The notes under the pieces were generated by a model. The model saw only the letters and a list, made by a program, of their open reading frames with translations, searched no databases and was not told the origin of the DNA. A stretch of DNA of 41,019 nucleotides from a virus (Duplodnaviria > Heunggongvirae > Uroviricota > Caudoviricetes): IMG/VR virus record IMGVR_UViG_2671180770_000025. One strand, written 5' to 3'. A program made the translations under genes and the position numbers. Below, piece after piece: positions 7,186 through 41,019 of this stretch (position 1 is the first letter of the stretch; each line of letters begins with the position of its first letter).

Positions 7186-8127
7186 ATGAGCACTAAATTA
7201 ACCGGCTATGTATGGGATGGTTGCGCTGCATCAGGCATGAAATTATCCAGCGTGGCAATTATGGCCCGCCTGGCTGATTTCAGTAATGACGAAGGTGTGT
7301 GCTGGCCATCAATTGAAACCATTGCCCGCCAGATTGGCGCGGGAATGAGTACCGTCAGAACGGCTATCGCACGGCTGGAAGCAGAAGGCTGGTTAACGCG
7401 TAAGGCGCGTCGCCAGGGTAACCGCAATGCGTCGAATGTTTATCAGCTTAACGTTGCGAAGCTTCAGGCAGCGGCATTTTCTCAACTGTCAGATTCTGAC
7501 CCGTCAAAATCTGACGCATCAAAATCTGACCCGTCAAAATTTGATGCGTCGAAATCTGGCAAAAAAGCGGGTTTTCACCCGTCAGAATCTGGCGGGGATC
7601 CGTCAGTAAAATCAAAACATGATCCGTCAGATAAAAAACCTTCTCGTCCGGACGCTTCGCAACCGGACACGCAGACGGATGAACAGGATTTTTTAACTCG
7701 CCATCCTGATGCGGTTGTATTCAGCCCTAAAAAGCGCCAGTGGGGAACGCAGGATGATTTGACCTGCGCACAGTGGCTCTGGAAAAAAATCATCGCCCTG
7801 TACGAGCAAGCCGCCGAATGTGACGGCGAGGTGGTTCGTCCCAAAGAACCGAACTGGACAGCCTGGGCAAACGAAATTCGCCTGATGTGTGTGCAGGATG
7901 GTCGTACTCACAAACAAATCTGCGAGATGTACAGCCGCGTCAGCCGCGATCCGTTCTGGTGCCGTAACGTGCTCAGCCCGTCGAAGTTGCGGGAAAAATG
8001 GGATGAGCTTTCCCTGCGCTTATCACCGTCCGTTAGCACGTACACCGAAAAACGCGAAGACCCGTACTTCAAATCCAGTTACGACAACGTGGACTACAGC
8101 CAGATCCCGGCAGGATTCAGGGGGTGA
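7186..8127 (+). CDS. Replication initiator (O-like): N-terminal winged-helix domain, C-terminal DnaT-like domain, ori iterons embedded
   Basis: N-terminal wHTH (SIETIARQIGAGMSTVRTAIARLEAEGWL); internal repeat peptide SDSDPSKSDASKSDPSKFDASKSG encoded by tandem DNA iterons; C-terminal W/KLREKWDEL region. Confidence 0.6.
   Translation: MSTKLTGYVWDGCAASGMKLSSVAIMARLADFSNDEGVCWPSIETIARQIGAGMSTVRTAIARLEAEGWLTRKARRQGNRNASNVYQLNVAKLQAAAFSQLSDSDPSKSDASKSDPSKFDASKSGKKAGFHPSESGGDPSVKSKHDPSDKKPSRPDASQPDTQTDEQDFLTRHPDAVVFSPKKRQWGTQDDLTCAQWLWKKIIALYEQAAECDGEVVRPKEPNWTAWANEIRLMCVQDGRTHKQICEMYSRVSRDPFWCRNVLSPSKLREKWDELSLRLSPSVSTYTEKREDPYFKSSYDNVDYSQIPAGFRG
7487..7640. repeat. Candidate origin of replication: five tandem 14-15-bp iterons, then degenerate copies and an A-rich tract
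   Basis: tgtcagattctgac / ccgtcaaaatctgac / gcatcaaaatctgac / ccgtcaaaatttgat / gcgtcgaaatctggc, then ccgtcagaatctgg, ccgtcagtaaaatc, ccgtcagataaaaaa. Confidence 0.6.
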
Positions 8128-34252: not shown

Positions 34253-34854
34253 TGAATAAAGCTGTATTGAATAGCGAACTCATTGCCATAAAAGCGGGAG
34301 ACATTATCATTTATAATTATGATGGTGAAACGCGGGAATATATTTCTACATCAACTGAATATCTCGCTGTCGGCGTCGGTATCCCGGCATGTTCCTGTTT
34401 GGATGCACCAGGTACACATAAAGCTGGTTATGCAATCTGTCGCTCTGTAGATTTAAATTCATGGGAATATGTGCCAGACCATCGCGGTGAAGTTGTCTAT
34501 AGTACCGAAACGGGAGATACCAAAGAAATCGCAGTTCCGGGTGATTATCCTGAAAATACAACCACTATCGCCCCGTTAACGCCATATGATAAATGGGATG
34601 GTGAGAAATGGGTGACGGATACTGAGGCACAGCATAGTGCCGCAGTAGACGCGGCAGAAGCACAGCGCCAGTCACTGATTGATGCAGCAATGGCTTCCAT
34701 TAGTCTGATTCAGCTGAAATTACAGGCCGGACGGAAGTTGACGCAGGCAGAAACAACCCGACTTAACGCCGTGCTGGATTACACTGACGCGGTGACGGCA
34801 ACAGATACCAGCACCGCGCCGGATGTCATCTGGCCTGAACTGCCGGAGGCGTAG
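34249..34854 (+). CDS. tfa: Tail fibre assembly protein (Tfa/U-like)
   Basis: 201 aa directly after the fibre gene (ATGA overlap). Confidence 0.7.
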
Positions 34855-35266
34855 GCCATTCAATATCTGGCGCACTGGAAGTATCGACCAGTTCCAGTGC
34901 GTCCAGATAATCCAGCCACAGATTATATTGCGCCAGATCCTCGCCTTTCAGACGACCAATAGCGGCTTTACCGGGCCATTGTTTACTGTTCATGTATTCA
35001 TTGGCCTGGCTAATTAACTGCTGTTTTTTAGTTTCAGCAATATCCATAACCATTTTTTTATCTGGCGGAGATATTAATATCCATGCAGGTCTCCCCTGAG
35101 AGGTGGCACCTAATATAAAACCATCAGGAGGAATTTGCGTATATTTATTCCATTCATCATCTGATATTTCGATAGCATCATCTGGCCATCCAATACCGTT
35201 GTGATATTCTTCTTTGCGAGTTTCATCATAAAACCACAATGTTGATGCACTGAAAAAAATTCTCAT
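34826..35266 (-). CDS. Alternative tail fibre assembly protein (Tfa') in the inverted orientation
   Basis: 146 aa on the opposite strand; C-terminus [14 protein letters not shown] parallels the Tfa C-terminus [14 protein letters not shown]. Confidence 0.6.
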   Translation of the reverse strand: MRIFFSASTLWFYDETRKEEYHNGIGWPDDAIEISDDEWNKYTQIPPDGFILGATSQGRPAWILISPPDKKMVMDIAETKKQQLISQANEYMNSKQWPGKAAIGRLKGEDLAQYNLWLDYLDALELVDTSSAPDIEWPTPPAVQAR

Positions 35267-35267
35267 T

Positions 35268-35641
35268 CTAATATCCTATCGCAAACCACGAGAAAGAAAG
35301 TTCTCTGGAATTGGCTGTTGGTGGCTGACCAATGCCCCCACGATAAAACGCCAGAGTTAATCCTCCTGCTTTGCGTGATGTTGTTTGAGCAAATACATAG
35401 TCATTTGTGTTCTCTTCCGCACTTAAAGCTCCTCCGGCAATACAGTCATTAGGGAATGCTGCAGGGAAATTAATCCAGATACTGGACTGCGTTGTCAGCT
35501 TTCCATACCCGGCTTTCAGAATTAATCCTCCTGGTAACTCAAAATTAAGAGGATTGTTTTTTGTAAATGGAAAGTTGGAGATATCCGGTATCTGATTTTC
35601 CCCTGTCCCCACATCCCGTTTTGCCGCTTCTCCCAAACCAA
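35268..35641 (-). CDS. Alternative tail fibre variable C-terminal cassette (no own start; expressed only after inversion)
   Basis: Open frame on the minus strand from the right crossover site; encodes NVGLGEA matching NLGLGEG at the left site. Confidence 0.55.
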
Positions 35642-35653
35642 CGTTTATGAAAA
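35628..35653. promoter_or_regulatory. Right crossover site of the invertible segment (inverted copy of the left site)
   Basis: Reverse complement ttttcataaacgttggtttgggagaa shares AAAC.TTGGTTTGGGAGAA with the left site. Confidence 0.6.
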
Positions 35654-35707
35654 TGCAGAAATAACGAGCAAATGGCATCATTCCTGCTTTTGTCAGGGGG
35701 AGCTACC

Positions 35708-35836
35708 ATGCTTATTGGCTATGTACGCGTATCAACAAATGACCAGAACACCGATCTACAACGTAATGCGTTGAGCTGTGCAGGATGCGAGCTGATTTTT
35801 GAAGACAAGATAAGCGGTACAAAGTCCGAAACCTAG
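35708..35836 (+). pseudogene. pin: Pin/Gin/Hin-family serine invertase, truncated after 42 codons
   Basis: MLIGYVRVSTNDQNTDLQRNALSCAGCELIFEDKISGTKSE matches the invertase N-terminus with catalytic Ser in VSTNDQ; in-frame TAG at 35834, then unrelated AT-rich DNA. Confidence 0.8.
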
Positions 35837-35931
35837 GGCTGACACTGCTGTTCTTGTTGCAAATTAAAGGATTTAATAGTGAGTAGCGGCCTTACTAATG
35901 TAAAGCCGCTATAATCATTTTATTAATTGCA

Positions 35932-37821
35932 TTAATCGTGTTTTGGCCATACTTTCAATGCAATTTCCCCCAACTTTTTACCCCGCTCCAGGATTTCATC
36001 CTCATCCCATTTATCCTTAACTATAAGTGGAATGTTCAGTCGTAGATTGGTGTGGACGATGAGAGCATCACGTTTTTTCAGAAATACAGCATTCTGAACA
36101 GAACGGTTTACGCTAAGGTTAAGCAAAGTTAGATTTCCCAACGTAGCTATCGCTTGTTGCCGTTTCCTTACCAGTAGCTGTTCAGGGGTAAGATCGGTTC
36201 CAGACAGAACAATTTGGTTCAATACCGTAGCATCTGAATTTGTCACCATATGACCATTTTCGAGAGGCCAACAGGAATACCAACTTTGAGGCATAAGATG
36301 ATCGATATCGAGGTTAGAAAGATTTGGAACATCAGGCTTCTCTGTCTTCACTTGGCGACAAAGTTCTCTTTCAAGTTCCGTTAACATTGAGCGCATTTTC
36401 GGTGCGTCGAGCCTGCCAGGATAAAGTGGAGCATTGATGCAAGCGTTGAGAAATTCTGAGTCCCCAGGCCAACGTGAGGCTTCGCCATTTAAGCTATTGA
36501 GGATATTACGTAACTCAACACTGGAAATTTCCGTTTTAGACAAGTGCCGCAATACATTCATAAATACATTGTTGTAATTCTTTGGCGTCAGGCCACATAC
36601 GGCTCTTCGTACTACGTAGGAGACAAGATCATTATACATGGCTGCTTTCTCATCATCGGCGATGTTAGCTATCGAAATGAACAAAGCAAGCGGATAAAGT
36701 GTCGTCACATCATAGGCTGCGATGCGATGTCCAAAGTGTGAGATGGGGGTTGTGCCAAAACCACCAACCAATTCTTTATATTGTGATGCATATTGTTTGA
36801 GGCGCTTTACTTGCAGATCTGCTCGTTGTGAAGGCAAGTCCTTACTTACATAATCACGATACTCATTGTAAAGACGAGACAGATCGATTTCACGTTGCCT
36901 TTCTGATTGCAATGTCGCATGCACTAGCCACTCCATGCGTGGTTTATTAATACGACCACGACGTTGTCTTTCTGACCAGTACGTATCTTCAAAGATCTTC
37001 CACTCATTCTCATATAATTCAACAGCATTAATATTTTCATGTTCAGCGCACATAAAAATATAATTGCGAATAAGATCTGTGGCATGAAGTTCCGCACCTC
37101 TGCCATTTAATGTTTCAAAAATTATTTGAGCGTCATCTTCAGCCTCGAGAAATATGCTTACTAGTTTCAGATCCGTCAAGACAGCCTCAATTAATGCTAC
37201 AGCATTTTCTCGTGGTGAGTGATTTTCTATTTTAATCCACTTTATAAAGGCTTCAGTAAAAAAACATAATGCTTCTAGTGATGGCGGGTGATTAAAATGC
37301 TTACGCAACGTACCATGCTGCGTGAAACTATCAGAGAATACATTCCGGATATCGTCAATATTTTCAACATTAAAACTTTGAATAAAATGAGTTTGATCCC
37401 GAAAAGTTGGCCACAGTTTGAAGCGCTCTACTTCTTTATTTCGCATTGTGTCTTCGTTTGAGTTTTTCAGGCAAGACGAAATGAGAGGCTCTAAGTTGGA
37501 AAGATCTGTCGCACGTAATGCTAATCGGATGGATGCCAGAACATATTGAAGAGTGGTCAATCGTTGCTGACCATCAATAATATGTATGGAATCTACACCT
37601 AATAATCCTTTTTTTGGTTGAGGTTCCAGTACCACTGCACCAAGGAAATGGGGAGTTGGTTTTGTACCCGAGAGCCGGGATTGTGCTTTCTCTAGGATAT
37701 CCTCCAGTAGAGCTGACCATTGGTTTCGCTGAGTCCATACATAGGCACGTTGATAGAATGGAACGCAGTATTGTCGGCGGTCTTGAAAAAGTTGTTGGAC
37801 AGTTAGCGTCTCGGATTTCAT
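35932..37821 (-). CDS. DUF262/DUF1524 two-domain nuclease (GmrSD-like, candidate type IV restriction / anti-phage enzyme); start may be 37881
   Basis: N-terminal DUF262 motifs (VPFYQRAYVWT, IIDGQQRLTTL); C-terminal DUF1524-like His-Me motif (NLDIDHLMPQSW); about 40% GC cargo. Confidence 0.7.
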   Translation of the reverse strand: MKSETLTVQQLFQDRRQYCVPFYQRAYVWTQRNQWSALLEDILEKAQSRLSGTKPTPHFLGAVVLEPQPKKGLLGVDSIHIIDGQQRLTTLQYVLASIRLALRATDLSNLEPLISSCLKNSNEDTMRNKEVERFKLWPTFRDQTHFIQSFNVENIDDIRNVFSDSFTQHGTLRKHFNHPPSLEALCFFTEAFIKWIKIENHSPRENAVALIEAVLTDLKLVSIFLEAEDDAQIIFETLNGRGAELHATDLIRNYIFMCAEHENINAVELYENEWKIFEDTYWSERQRRGRINKPRMEWLVHATLQSERQREIDLSRLYNEYRDYVSKDLPSQRADLQVKRLKQYASQYKELVGGFGTTPISHFGHRIAAYDVTTLYPLALFISIANIADDEKAAMYNDLVSYVVRRAVCGLTPKNYNNVFMNVLRHLSKTEISSVELRNILNSLNGEASRWPGDSEFLNACINAPLYPGRLDAPKMRSMLTELERELCRQVKTEKPDVPNLSNLDIDHLMPQSWYSCWPLENGHMVTNSDATVLNQIVLSGTDLTPEQLLVRKRQQAIATLGNLTLLNLSVNRSVQNAVFLKKRDALIVHTNLRLNIPLIVKDKWDEDEILERGKKLGEIALKVWPKHD

Positions 37822-38554
37822 GGTATACCTGTAAGCGACATTGTACAAAAGTGAGGAGTTAATCTGATTTAGAACAATCATTTTATGTTGCTATGATACA
37901 ACGTATTTGTTACCGGTTAAGTAAAAAACGCGTCTGAACGCTGACGTTTTAGGGCTTTACTAGTTATTCTTTCTTATCTCTTCATCATCCCATCGGCATC
38001 CTGTCGAGGTTGTTGACTTGTTGTTATTTATTTTGTTTAGGCGCTGTTTAATTATTATTGATGGGACTGGTGGTGAGAGGTGATTGAAACCGCAGACAGG
38101 TCGTATGCAAGACGTGCTGCGGTTGGCTGGTAAATGTTAGATAGTGCGAGTATTGAATGATTTCTAGCCGTTATTGATTTTACGTATTTTTGTATGAGAG
38201 GATTTGCATCTCCTGCCACCGACCCTCCATGACTTTACGCCACTGTCTCTAGGGCTGCTATGTGCCAAAAGCGGAAGTTGAGGGGGGATGGCAAGCACTC
38301 GTATCGTGGCAAAATTTTGGCTACCGCTTCTCCCGGTCGCAACCGATTTAGTTGACTATGGCGCGTGTGTTAATCAACGGGGAGGAAGTTAGAGGAAACA
38401 ATAAATAAAGACATAACCGTCTGTTTTTATTTAAATTATTGACTGATGCGAGGAGTTGAACTTCCGATACCCCATGATATCTTACTTAGATAGTGAGATG
38501 ATCTAAGATACACTATATAAGTTACAATCTAGCCGGAGATGTAGGAGGGAGTAT

Positions 38555-39358
38555 ATGGGGTATGATTATAAAGAGCATATTAGCAATGCTAAGAGGCTCT
38601 ATGAAATTGGGGATAACGCTTCTTTAAGATACTGTGCATTGGAATTGAGATTTGCAATTGAGTGCCATGTATATATTCAATTAAGAGCAGGGCTAGGAAC
38701 AATTCCAGAGACGGTAATTAACACATGGCAACCACCTCAAGCAATAAAATCTTTATGCATGTTTGAGGAAACAGCAGATCAGGATTTAAAAGTAACTATA
38801 ACTTGTGATGACTCTAATGAGATAACAGCAAACTATAAAAATATTAAGTATAAGGACCTTAATAAATGGTATAATACCCTTGGGAGTTTTTTACATCAAC
38901 CAACCATAAAAAAGCAAGAATTTCAAGTAGATAAAGATAAACTAAATTCGATATTATCGAATTTAGCTGAACTGTGCGATCATCAGCTCATAACATTTCA
39001 TCGTGGTTATGAGAAAATAAAATGTGAAAAATGTAAAAAGGAAATTATTTTTACTAAAAATTACGTGAAAAAAAATAATAAAATAGATTGCCAAAATGCT
39101 GGTTGCCATAATTATGTTATTATTAGACTTGCCCCGGATGGTACATATGAATCACTCCAATCTGCTGTAGTAGCTTGCTTTATATGTGGTGAAAAAAACC
39201 ACATCTCATTATGCGACATGGAGGATGGAGCAGAGTTATATTGCAAGACGTGTAAAAATAAACATGTAATTAAAAAAGCTATTTTCTCCCAAGACAAAGT
39301 TGTTCCCATACCTGAATTTACTTTCGAAAACTCATTGTTGGTTGAGGACAAAGAGTAA
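38555..39358 (+). CDS. Hypothetical 267-aa protein: helical N-terminal region with R-x5-H motif, C-terminal double zinc-ribbon-like region
   Basis: Very AT-rich; ELRFAIECH fits Rx4-6H; CEKCKK...CQNAGCH and CFICGE...CKTCKNKH Cys clusters; no recognised family. Confidence 0.5.
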   Translation: MGYDYKEHISNAKRLYEIGDNASLRYCALELRFAIECHVYIQLRAGLGTIPETVINTWQPPQAIKSLCMFEETADQDLKVTITCDDSNEITANYKNIKYKDLNKWYNTLGSFLHQPTIKKQEFQVDKDKLNSILSNLAELCDHQLITFHRGYEKIKCEKCKKEIIFTKNYVKKNNKIDCQNAGCHNYVIIRLAPDGTYESLQSAVVACFICGEKNHISLCDMEDGAELYCKTCKNKHVIKKAIFSQDKVVPIPEFTFENSLLVEDKE

Positions 39359-39586
39359 CATCAAGTTGTTTGTAGAGCTTGCTTGACCTGCTCCCCGTTG
39401 ATTAATACATATTTCTGCTGGTCATATCATTATTTTGAGCCTGACGGCTTGATCAACTCAGTCCGCTGTTCGCTCATAGCGGACCTTACAACCACCTGAT
39501 TGGTCCGTTCCGTGTCAGGAGCGGATACCGTAAGCATTTTATCCTCTGGAGGGGCATCCCTTTCAAGAAATGCATCCGTTGTGGAT

Positions 39587-40018
39587 TTATGCAACACCTG
39601 AAGCTACTAACAAAGAACAATTTGTCTGACCAAAGGCATTTTTTAGCAGCGGGAAAAGAGGGGGAAGTTCCGTTAGCGATTTTAGAGGCTTGAGGCTCTT
39701 AAGTGATTTAAGTGATGGCAAATTAGGTGTGGTAACCATGTCTTTTACTGCACAGGCAACATAGCCATCGTGATCAATCAACATACCATTAGTAAACCAG
39801 CCTAAATGATTCCCATTGAATCCATAAACATCAAACTCATTGTTCTGGTTATGTTTAAGGTAGGCGCTTGGTTCACCCTCCCAACTATATAAAGTCAACT
39901 CGTCATCAAGTGAAATATAAACGACGGCGTTGCCTTGATTATCATATAGATCTAGGTCATTACTCGCAGTAACACAAGCTGAGAAAAGAAACATAACTAG
40001 CACGAGTGATTTTTTCAT
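39587..40018 (-). CDS. Secreted hypothetical protein with C-terminal LKS repeat (143 aa)
   Basis: N-terminal signal peptide MKKSLVLVMFLFSACVTA; C-terminal PSLKSLKSLKPLKSL repeat encoded by a short tandem DNA repeat. Confidence 0.45.
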   Translation of the reverse strand: MKKSLVLVMFLFSACVTASNDLDLYDNQGNAVVYISLDDELTLYSWEGEPSAYLKHNQNNEFDVYGFNGNHLGWFTNGMLIDHDGYVACAVKDMVTTPNLPSLKSLKSLKPLKSLTELPPLFPLLKNAFGQTNCSLLVASGVA

Positions 40019-40353
40019 AACTTCTCAAGTTTCTTAGAAAGGAAAAGTTCGAACATTCTATCAAAATTATGAGGACACTAACTTCCGATTTTCGCTCATA
40101 ACAGACATTCACTACAGTTATGGTAGAAGGTATGCATGCTGGGTGGGGAAAGTATGAAGGAAAAGAAGACTGCTGCGCCGTTTGTCGTCACGTTTATCTT
40201 CATTGGCTATGCAAGTCGTAATACAAGGTGGGACAAAACTGAGACACATAAGGCCTCGCAATGGCTTGCAAGGCTTTACATGTTTTGATGTGGTGGGACG
40301 TGTGAGCGCAGTGTTGATGGGGTAATGCTTTGAATTAGAAGCGGATTCTTATA

Positions 40354-40399
40354 ATTCGTAATGCGAAGGTCGTAGGTTCGACTCCTATTATCGGCACCA
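40354..40399 (+). other. attR: 46-nt 3' partial copy of tRNA-Thr (thrW-like, anticodon CGU) from anticodon loop to CCA
   Basis: attcgtaatgcgaaggtcgtaggttcgactcctattatcggcacca matches the 3' portion of E. coli thrW as recalled; the 5' half of the tRNA is absent here. Confidence 0.7.
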
Positions 40400-40563
40400 T
40401 CCCCACTTCTTCAAACGTCCGTATTTGTCCATAAGCATACTGTTTTATAAAAGATTTTTTGTTATCGTTGTCCGTGTTAGTCCATAACCTTCCAGTAGAA
40501 TCCAGTACTAAATGTGTATAGGATTATGTATATGTTCCTGTTCGATTTTGGAATTCTATACAC

Positions 40564-41019
40564 ATGCCCCTAAATGATATGCAGATTCGCCGTGCTAAAC
40601 CTGAAGCTAAAGCCTATACACTTGGGGATGGGCAAGGGTTGTCTTTACTTGTAGAGCCAAATGGAAGTAAAAGCTGGCGATTTCGTTATCGCTATGCAGG
40701 TAAACCTAAAATGATCTCGCTTGGTGTTTATCCAACGATCACACTTGCTGAAGCTCGCGCCCGCCGTGATGAGGCCAGAAAAATAGTGGCCGAGGGAAAA
40801 AATCCTAGTGAGGTTCGAAAAGAACAAAAATTAGCATTACGAATTCAATCTGAGAACGCATTCGAAAAGATTGCCAGAGAGTGGCATCAGATGAAGTCGG
40901 CAAAATGGTCTGCTGGGTATGCCTCAGATATTATTGAGGCGTTCCAAAATGATATTTTTCCGTATGTAGGGACGAGGCCTGTAGGGGAAATTAAACCGCT
41001 AGAAGGCTTTGTTGAATAA
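40564..41019 (+). CDS. P4-type tyrosine integrase, N-terminal part (runs off the window end)
   Basis: MPLNDMQIRRAKPEAKAYTLGDGQGLSLLVEPNGSKSWRFRYRYAGKPK is a typical P4-like integrase N-terminus; just downstream of the tRNA fragment. Confidence 0.75.
   Translation: MPLNDMQIRRAKPEAKAYTLGDGQGLSLLVEPNGSKSWRFRYRYAGKPKMISLGVYPTITLAEARARRDEARKIVAEGKNPSEVRKEQKLALRIQSENAFEKIAREWHQMKSAKWSAGYASDIIEAFQNDIFPYVGTRPVGEIKPLEGFVE

Follow-up and report, generated by a model that had tools for sequence, protein, structure and literature searches.

RAZR (ring-activated zinc-finger RNase; PD-T7-4) is a one-protein abortive-infection ribonuclease (RNase), in which an N-terminal Cys4 zinc ribbon serves as sensor and a C-terminal DUF4145/HEPN domain as effector; rings of phage portal or recombinase proteins activate it, its zinc-finger domain sets the specificity, and its catalytic residues are R146 and H154 (PMC13017515). 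DS-38 ('HEP2', WP_001313577.1) is an experimentally validated one-protein defence system of Escherichia coli (PMC13092281), and HepS, encoded by the Gifsy-1 prophage, is a stand-alone HEPN anticodon nuclease, which is triggered by tail-tip protein J and targets tRNA anticodon loops (PMC13043305). Here, we describe a gene located at positions 38555..39358 (plus strand) of the IMG/VR virus record IMGVR_UViG_2671180770_000025, a stretch of 41,019 nucleotides referred to as the window. The open reading frame (ORF) encodes a protein of 267 amino acids, followed by a stop codon, which is predicted to combine an N-terminal HEPN fold with two C-terminal zinc ribbons. We propose that the protein is a self-contained, one-protein defence factor of the abortive-infection type that is carried as prophage cargo, a reading to which we assign a probability of roughly 45%, and that it represents a plausible candidate for a new HEPN-type abortive-infection family.

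Predicted HEPN fold and putative active site

An AlphaFold2 model based on an alignment of 16 sequences had a mean predicted local distance difference test (pLDDT) score of 77.5 and a predicted template modelling (pTM) score of 0.68, with pLDDT values of 80-96 across most of residues 1-140. In this model, the N-terminal 145 residues adopt a HEPN fold, and it is by its predicted structure that the protein can be placed in the HEPN superfamily at the level of the fold. According to the published description, a HEPN domain carries an insert that separates helix 2 from helix 3, keeps an acidic residue within helix 2 and has its catalytic histidine where helix 3 ends (PMC3710099). The model contains all three of these layout features, namely the insert of residues 48-98, E36 and H114 (Table 1). 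A Foldseek search of the model against the PDB and BFVD returned nothing below an E value of 0.07 and the HEPN structure 4nqf at a probability of 0.8 only, and structural likeness to the model was seen for LsoA, AbiA and AbiV at lower Z scores.

The residues that would line the active site are among the best conserved of the family. In an alignment of 248 members, which underlies all conservation counts given here, E36 and H114 are invariant (248/248), R32 and W58 are each kept in 247 members and Y40 in 243, while E30, which like E36 is located in helix 2, is found in 231. G110 is kept in 241 members, position 106 is limited to Y, H or W and position 107 to N, D or H, and the family form of the motif at the end of helix 3 reads Y106-[N/D/H]107-x-L-G-[S/N]-x-L-H114. 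Compared with the Rx4-6H motif of HEPN enzymes, H114 is in place, but the residues 5-8 positions upstream of it are Y106, N107, T108 and L109, and a conserved arginine is missing. The spacing between Tyr106 and His114 (x7) is the same as that between R146 and H154 of RAZR, and the position following the HEPN arginine is usually N, D or H (PMC3710099), which is the identical set of residues found at position 107. In helix 2, R32 precedes E36 by one turn and points to the same side; judging from the helix geometry, it may supply the missing guanidinium group.

A preliminary description of this DNA, which was made from the sequence alone, had pointed to a different motif, R-x5-H within ELRFAIECH (R32 to H38), as compatible with a HEPN-type RNase. 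This motif is present; it is, however, not the active-site motif, because it lies within helix 2, its two residues are on different faces and it is not conserved, with H38 being kept in only 23 of the 248 members, essentially those of the enterobacterial clade. The compatibility with a HEPN domain as such is upheld for the fold by structure prediction, with the qualification that the family-wide histidine is H114 and not H38 and that the canonical arginine is absent.

Tandem zinc ribbons in a large and uniform family

The C-terminal part of the protein contains two cysteine clusters with the spacing C157-x2-C160...C179-x4-C184 and C208-x2-C211...C230-x2-C233, and each of the eight cysteines is kept in at least 246 of the 248 members. 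Predicted strands or beta-hairpins flank each cysteine pair in the AlphaFold2 model and the pair itself sits on the turn. Sequence and model agree on two zinc-ribbon-like Cys4 modules, with two cysteine pairs on beta-hairpin knuckles throughout the family. The two CxxC...CxxC zinc ribbons proposed earlier are therefore retained as two Cys4 modules, with the correction that one half-site (C179-C184) is a Cx4C and not a CxxC motif. In ribbon 2, the family profile matches the zinc ribbon of PDB entry 7zok at an E value of 3e-4, and individual members match Zn_ribbon_Elf1, Zn_ribbon_4 and Zn_ribbon_RPB9 at 1e-3 to 4e-5. The ribbons diverge faster than the HEPN core: the mean pairwise identity among Enterobacterales is 0.41 for the zinc-ribbon module versus 0.59 for the HEPN core, and family-wide, with the cysteines excluded, it is 0.16 versus 0.37. 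In E. coli SW071618 (locus L002, 8256-11307), one of the three E. coli genomes with the gene, the insertion sequence (IS) elements IS3 and IS5 follow directly on codon 243; the disordered tail at the C terminus is all that is lost, and the two zinc ribbons are preserved.

A word-indexed search identified 19 close homologues, all from Enterobacterales and 34-99% identical to the protein. When the alignment of these close homologues was used for an exhaustive hidden Markov model (HMM) search, 873 representative clusters (representatives at about 50% identity) were found at an E value of 1e-3 or below, 592 of them at 1e-10 or below and 55 at 1e-30 or below. The members are mostly 255-285 amino acids long, match over their full length and have a uniform architecture. 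One variant, P0084 from a JGI metagenome, is 377 amino acids long and is extended at its C terminus by two transmembrane helices. The members with a named source belong to Vibrio, Pseudoalteromonas, Oceanisphaera, Marinomonas, Pseudomonas, Vogesella and Agrobacterium or to metagenome-assembled genomes of alphaproteobacteria, Gemmatimonadetes and Myxococcota, and all of them are annotated as 'hypothetical protein'. The view that the protein belongs to no characterised family is borne out, as scans against Pfam, NCBIfam, PADLOC and PHROG gave no model that covers it. When 20 diverse members and, by themselves, 29 N-terminal domains were scanned against the libraries, nothing beyond weak, noise-like zinc-ribbon matches was obtained, and 19 of the 20 diverse members had no match in PADLOC, the one exception being a match to PDC-M02A at 2e-4. 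Among PDB chains, searches by sequence and by profile matched only zinc-finger proteins and, by chance, Csy4, and a tblastn search of 50,697 phage genomes gave zero matches.

The status of the gene as a defence candidate, which the preliminary description had suggested, is independently echoed by a machine-learning screen. In Table S10 of DefensePredictor, 1,041 E. coli clusters are given as having a 'predicted, uncharacterized defense protein' (PMC13092281). Among them is WP_089568834.1, which differs from the product of our ORF by a single substitution (N169S) and has a mean log-odds score of 6.90 (range 5.85-7.71) at a stringent cutoff of 4; it is absent from the DefensePredictor tables of cloned and tested systems.

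In our working model, the HEPN-fold domain would be the effector and most likely a metal-independent RNase. Its active site would be formed by His114, at the canonical position at the end of helix 3, together with three residues on the side of helix 2 that faces it, Glu36, Arg32 and Tyr40, with Arg32 standing in for the canonical arginine, whose place is taken by Tyr106. The tandem, faster-evolving zinc ribbons could act as the sensor or regulatory module: the binding of a phage protein or nucleic acid by the ribbons would switch on the nuclease, probably through altered oligomerisation, as is the case for other HEPN enzymes, and as an outcome translation would be stopped and the infection aborted. 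For this defence reading, we count the HEPN-like layout of the model, the near invariance of R32, E36, H114 and the eight cysteines in a large, uniform family, the faster divergence of the ribbons, which parallels the specificity domain of RAZR, the DefensePredictor log-odds of 6.90 and the single-protein HEPN precedents RAZR, DS-38 and HepS, as well as the location of the homologues, described below, in mobile and defence contexts that have no neighbour in common and the low GC content of the gene at 10 of 10 loci.

A single-gene cassette in the cargo slot of an SfII-like prophage

The ORF has a GC content of 0.326, whereas the window as a whole has 0.501 and the phage body (first 35 kb) 0.517, in agreement with the initial claim of a very-low-GC ORF of 267 amino acids. 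It is preceded by a strong Shine-Dalgarno sequence (Table 1). A promoter scan of the upstream region gave no strong sigma-70 site and an Rfam scan around the ORF matched zero RNA elements. A near-perfect palindrome with 13-bp arms, AACTAAATTCGAT-ATT-ATCGAATTTAGCT, is located inside the ORF at 38940-38968; at the protein level it gives LNSILSNL, a near-palindromic peptide of helix 4, and on the minus strand it was marked as resembling a terminator.

Among 5,426 complete E. coli genomes, 3 carry the gene. Strain FG92-1 shares with the window the truncated invertase, the GmrSD protein (WP_021574462.1) and the beta-flower/attR end, with flanks that are 99.4-99.7% identical over 35627..38267 and 39462..40400, and it carries a 977-bp ydfV'/flxA-like segment where the window has 38268..39461. 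Because of this comparison, the gene and the upstream region that belongs to it can be delimited as a 1.2-kb module, which contains no second gene and is independent of GmrSD. The gene was horizontally acquired and is mobile as a discrete cassette. The upstream region contains an eroded remnant of the 3' half of a tRNA-Pro gene, with no intact tRNA at this site. The homologues of Klebsiella (65% identical) and Enterobacter (55%) are preceded, at the corresponding place, by 47 nt in reverse-complement orientation that match the 3' end of E. coli tRNA-Pro at 100% identity (about 7230-7290 in locus L003 and about 7880-7940 in locus L006). The remnant points to an old attachment (att) scar and to an origin of the gene at the att edge of an island that integrates into tRNA-Pro.

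Table 1. Positions of the gene's features and of its surroundings in the 41,019-nucleotide window (aa, amino acid residues of the product)
Feature	Position	Strand	Remarks
Shine-Dalgarno sequence AGGAGGGAG	38543..38551	+	Direct sequence reading; strong, 3-6 nt 5' of ATG
HEPN-fold domain, aa 1-145	38555..38989	+	AlphaFold2 model
Helix 1, aa 5-18; helix 2, aa 21-47			AlphaFold2 model; R32, E36 and Y40 in helix 2
Codons of the helix-2 triad	38648..38674	+	R32 38648, E36 38660, Y40 38672; H38 at 38666
Insert, aa 48-98			Between helices 2 and 3; invariant WQP motif and beta-hairpin
Helix 3, aa 99-119; helix 4, aa 127-140			Y106, N107, G110 and H114 in helix 3
Codons of Y106-N107-x-L-G-S-x-L-H114	38870..38896	+	End of helix 3
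Zinc ribbon 1, aa 150-200	39002..39154	+	C157, C160, C179, C184; weak zinc-ribbon Pfam matches
Zinc ribbon 2, aa 201-242	39155..39280	+	C208, C211, C230, C233
C-terminal tail, aa 243-267	39281..39355	+	Predicted disordered, pLDDT < 50; conserved only among Enterobacterales
Single-gene cassette	38268..39461	.	287 bp upstream, ORF and 103 bp downstream; GC 0.357; about 1.2 kb
Degenerate tRNA-Pro 3'-half remnant	38438..38477	-	Eroded copy, upstream of the gene
GmrSD type IV restriction gene	35932..37881	-	Pfam GmrSD_N and GmrSD_C; PADLOC mREase_IV, 1440 bits; full-length
4-fold beta-flower protein (PF21784), 143 aa	39587..40018	-	Between the ORF and attR
attR	40354..40400		Exact 47-nt repeat of the tRNA-Thr (thrW) 3' end
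P4-type integrase	from 40564		Directly after attR

The ORF lies between the GmrSD gene and attR, as had been noted before, with the beta-flower gene also intervening. The same locus is found in E. coli A27 at 99.8% identity, and because the opposite prophage end in this strain has the order proA - tRNA-Thr - integrase, the 47-nt repeat can be identified as attR and the ORF placed about 1 kb inside the prophage. In its structural module, the prophage shares 97% identity with the Shigella phages SfII, SfI, SfIV and SfV, whose tails are contractile and Mu-like. P22 also uses the thrW attachment site. The earlier label 'P22-like' thus holds for the use of this site but not for the morphology, because the structural module is that of a contractile-tailed, SfII/SfV-like myovirus. 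In SfII, the region from the tail-fibre assembly gene to int contains an acyltransferase gene, an IS element and the O-antigen conversion genes gtrII-gtrB-gtrA. The assignment of the ORF to a slot for conversion or defence morons was hence right in substance. In the window, the slot contains a truncated Pin-type invertase gene (35672..35836), GmrSD, our ORF and the beta-flower gene.

Several other features of this prophage end were observed. The beta-flower protein begins with a signal peptide and contains the sequence FSAC, which resembles a lipobox, and its gene is the last one before attR in all related prophage ends examined, including the degenerate FG92-1 prophage. On the other side of the slot, the tail-fibre and assembly genes (34826..35681, minus strand) adjoin a Pin/Hin-type invertase gene that is cut after 54 codons, about 100 bp from the GmrSD gene, and the identical arrangement of truncated invertase and GmrSD is present in A27, SW071618 and FG92-1. 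This suggests that the tail-fibre inversion system is frozen and that the arrival of GmrSD destroyed the invertase. The thrW site is occupied in tandem (40354-41019), with the att core of the SfII-like prophage followed by the P4-type integrase. The second thrW element of A27 is a P4-like satellite with psu, delta/ogr and primase genes, in which genes for an 'ATP-dependent nuclease' and a UvrD-helicase, with IS1 between them, resemble Gabija.

No conserved neighbour of the gene was found: the neighbouring proteins at 13 places are mutually unrelated, and an MNT antitoxin or any other shared neighbour is absent from 16 loci. At each of the 10 loci examined for composition, the GC content of the gene is lower than that of its flanks. 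One homologue is found where a degenerate P2/186-like prophage ends, with DndB and an HNH/methylase pair nearby. Another shares its island with HigB/HTH (HigBA), with Mrr-like and FRG proteins and with an integrase, and a third belongs to a tmRNA-linked island that also has AbiEii. In Agrobacterium, a homologue lies in a plasmid-like region with a Zeta toxin, umuDC and ArdC. In Klebsiella, the gene is found beside PIN_12, SRAP and umuDC, in Vibrio it adjoins a filamentous prophage, and in Pseudomonas veronii it is carried on an element resembling an integrative and conjugative element (ICE), with a second copy elsewhere in the genome. Two further copies lie in small chromosomal islets, one of which (locus L020, 8001-9498) is located between gidA and gidB beside a gene for a MafB19-type deaminase. 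Relatives were also detected on nine IMG/VR viral contigs, in six cases within about 2 kb of the contig end. A lambda-like viral contig has the order gpJ - tail fibre - homologue - DUF6602 protein - lambda-type integrase. The gene for the DUF6602 protein, which follows a family member just before the integrase (locus L023, 9092-9847, minus strand), may be another cargo or defence candidate of the same slot.

Competing readings and comparison with known systems

Several observations speak against the proposed defence function or against the HEPN assignment on which it is built. The canonical arginine of the Rx4-6H motif is missing in every register (positions 104-110), and because of its absence catalysis is uncertain. 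None of the HEPN-clan profiles in Pfam (HEPN, DUF86, DUF4145 and others) matched any of the 20 full-length members and 29 N-terminal domains searched, the match of one member to DUF4145 having a noise-level E value of 0.13. Profile searches gave no sequence-level link to any HEPN model or to RAZR, and alignment of the family profile with DS-38 by hhalign gave 5.7%, for the zinc-ribbon stretch only, and 0.5% for the HEPN part, which amounts to no detectable homology. The HEPN call depends on a structure predicted from 16 sequences, and four-helix bundles can match generically. In addition, several of the loci are small islets amid housekeeping genes with no defence neighbour, and the experimental validation rate of DefensePredictor predictions is about 45% (PMC13092281).

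Given the missing arginine, the main rival is that the protein is a non-catalytic binding or regulatory factor, whose degenerate HEPN domain and ribbons would bind RNA, DNA or protein without cutting, for example in superinfection exclusion, as a translational or transcriptional modulator or as an adaptor. HEPN families that lack the motif, such as MtlR and Swt1, can indeed be nucleic-acid-binding or regulatory (PMC3710099), and zinc ribbons are generic interaction modules. On the other hand, the invariant histidine, glutamate, arginine and tyrosine residues fit a catalytic site rather than a mere scaffold, the same survey lists families that have kept the histidine and lost the arginine (c2405 and PaREP1-type), and it notes that motif-less HEPN proteins may cleave RNA via alternative residues, with AbiV having an alternative conserved histidine (PMC3710099); AbiV is called an RNase in the title of a 2024 bioRxiv preprint. 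We therefore regard a purely non-catalytic role as unlikely, yet as the alternative that deserves most attention. Less likely still is a toxin that stabilises mobile elements by addiction and is held in check by self-inhibition or by an unrecognised antitoxin, either a small ORF or an RNA. Such a toxin would fit the carriage of the gene on prophages, ICEs and plasmids, the frequency of HEPN toxins in toxin-antitoxin systems and the small unannotated ORFs upstream of some homologues, but the flanking ORFs are mutually unrelated and include no MNT or other conserved neighbour, nothing in Rfam matched around the gene, and the E. coli cassette consists of this ORF alone.

The neighbourhood of the Agrobacterium homologue, which resembles a plasmid leading region with ArdC and umuDC, and the umuDC genes adjoining the Klebsiella homologue would be in line with a counter-defence or lysogeny-benefit factor, for instance an inhibitor of a host immune or repair pathway. 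We consider this improbable: the family had zero matches in the 50,697 sequenced phage genomes, it is found in chromosomal islets without a surrounding element, its fold and invariant polar residues point to an enzyme, and its DefensePredictor score is that of a defence protein. A role as partner of the adjacent GmrSD in a two-gene system, suggested by the adjacent and divergent arrangement of the two genes in all three E. coli genomes that carry the gene, is very improbable and is essentially refuted by the comparison with FG92-1, in which the identical GmrSD protein is accompanied by the flxA-like segment in place of the cassette; moreover, GmrSD was a neighbour at none of the 15 other homologue loci examined. 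The one-protein abortive-infection factor thus remains our preferred reading. A more far-reaching version of it, which we put forward tentatively and consider doubtful as a whole, is that the family forms an undescribed branch of HEPN-like nucleases, in which the histidine keeps its canonical place, helix 2 provides the arginine and a tyrosine fills the vacated position, coupled to a fast-evolving tandem zinc-ribbon sensor, and that this branch would have arisen independently of RAZR and DS-38, would have converged with them on sensing by a zinc finger and killing by a HEPN domain, and would have spread in Proteobacteria and beyond on prophages, ICEs and plasmids.

If the preferred reading is correct, a widespread family of about 870 clusters, which is currently annotated by no database, would join the anti-phage repertoire. 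It would be the third single-protein design, independent in sequence, that combines a zinc finger and a HEPN domain, which would strengthen the case for a recurrent solution to phage sensing, and it would provide a natural experiment on how a HEPN active site functions without its signature arginine. The slot that houses O-antigen conversion genes in Shigella SfII/SfV would, in the E. coli relatives, be a depot for defence genes, with GmrSD and the candidate cassette as exchangeable modules.

How does the family compare with described systems? In RAZR, the zinc finger comes first, there is one ribbon and the catalytic arginine is present, whereas here the HEPN domain comes first and is followed by two ribbons, and Tyr106 is found at the position of the arginine. 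RAZR was not matched in the PADLOC, DUF4145 Pfam or PDB-chain profile searches, for which the presence of a PD-T7-4 model and of entries 9Y9C/9Y6U in the searched sets is unconfirmed. DS-38 has the same domain order as our protein, an N-terminal HEPN domain and then a C-terminal cysteine-rich zinc-finger region, a likeness of architecture only; it differs in its length of 366 amino acids, its canonical R-N-x3-H motif and its longer multi-finger region. HepS, an abortive-infection protein, is likewise a HEPN protein that stands alone; its gene occupies an accessory slot of a prophage and lacks a partner, and the protein acts as a self-sufficient sensor and effector, but it has the canonical Rx4-6H motif (H105), lacks zinc ribbons and is shorter than 250 amino acids. 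Compared by their descriptions, c2405 and the HEPN-T/PaREP1 proteins show the same kind of active-site deviation, with the histidine kept and the arginine lost (PMC3710099). Fusions of HEPN domains and zinc ribbons, again compared by description, are known from Npun_R5629 and Plim_2023 and include a variant with two transmembrane helices as in P0084 (PMC3710099); unlike the family studied here, they are described with an active canonical motif. Taken together, single-protein defence by a zinc finger and a HEPN domain is already known from RAZR and DS-38, to which the present family is unrelated as judged by sequence comparison, and this family, so far flagged only by a machine-learning screen, is a directly testable candidate for a further system of this kind.

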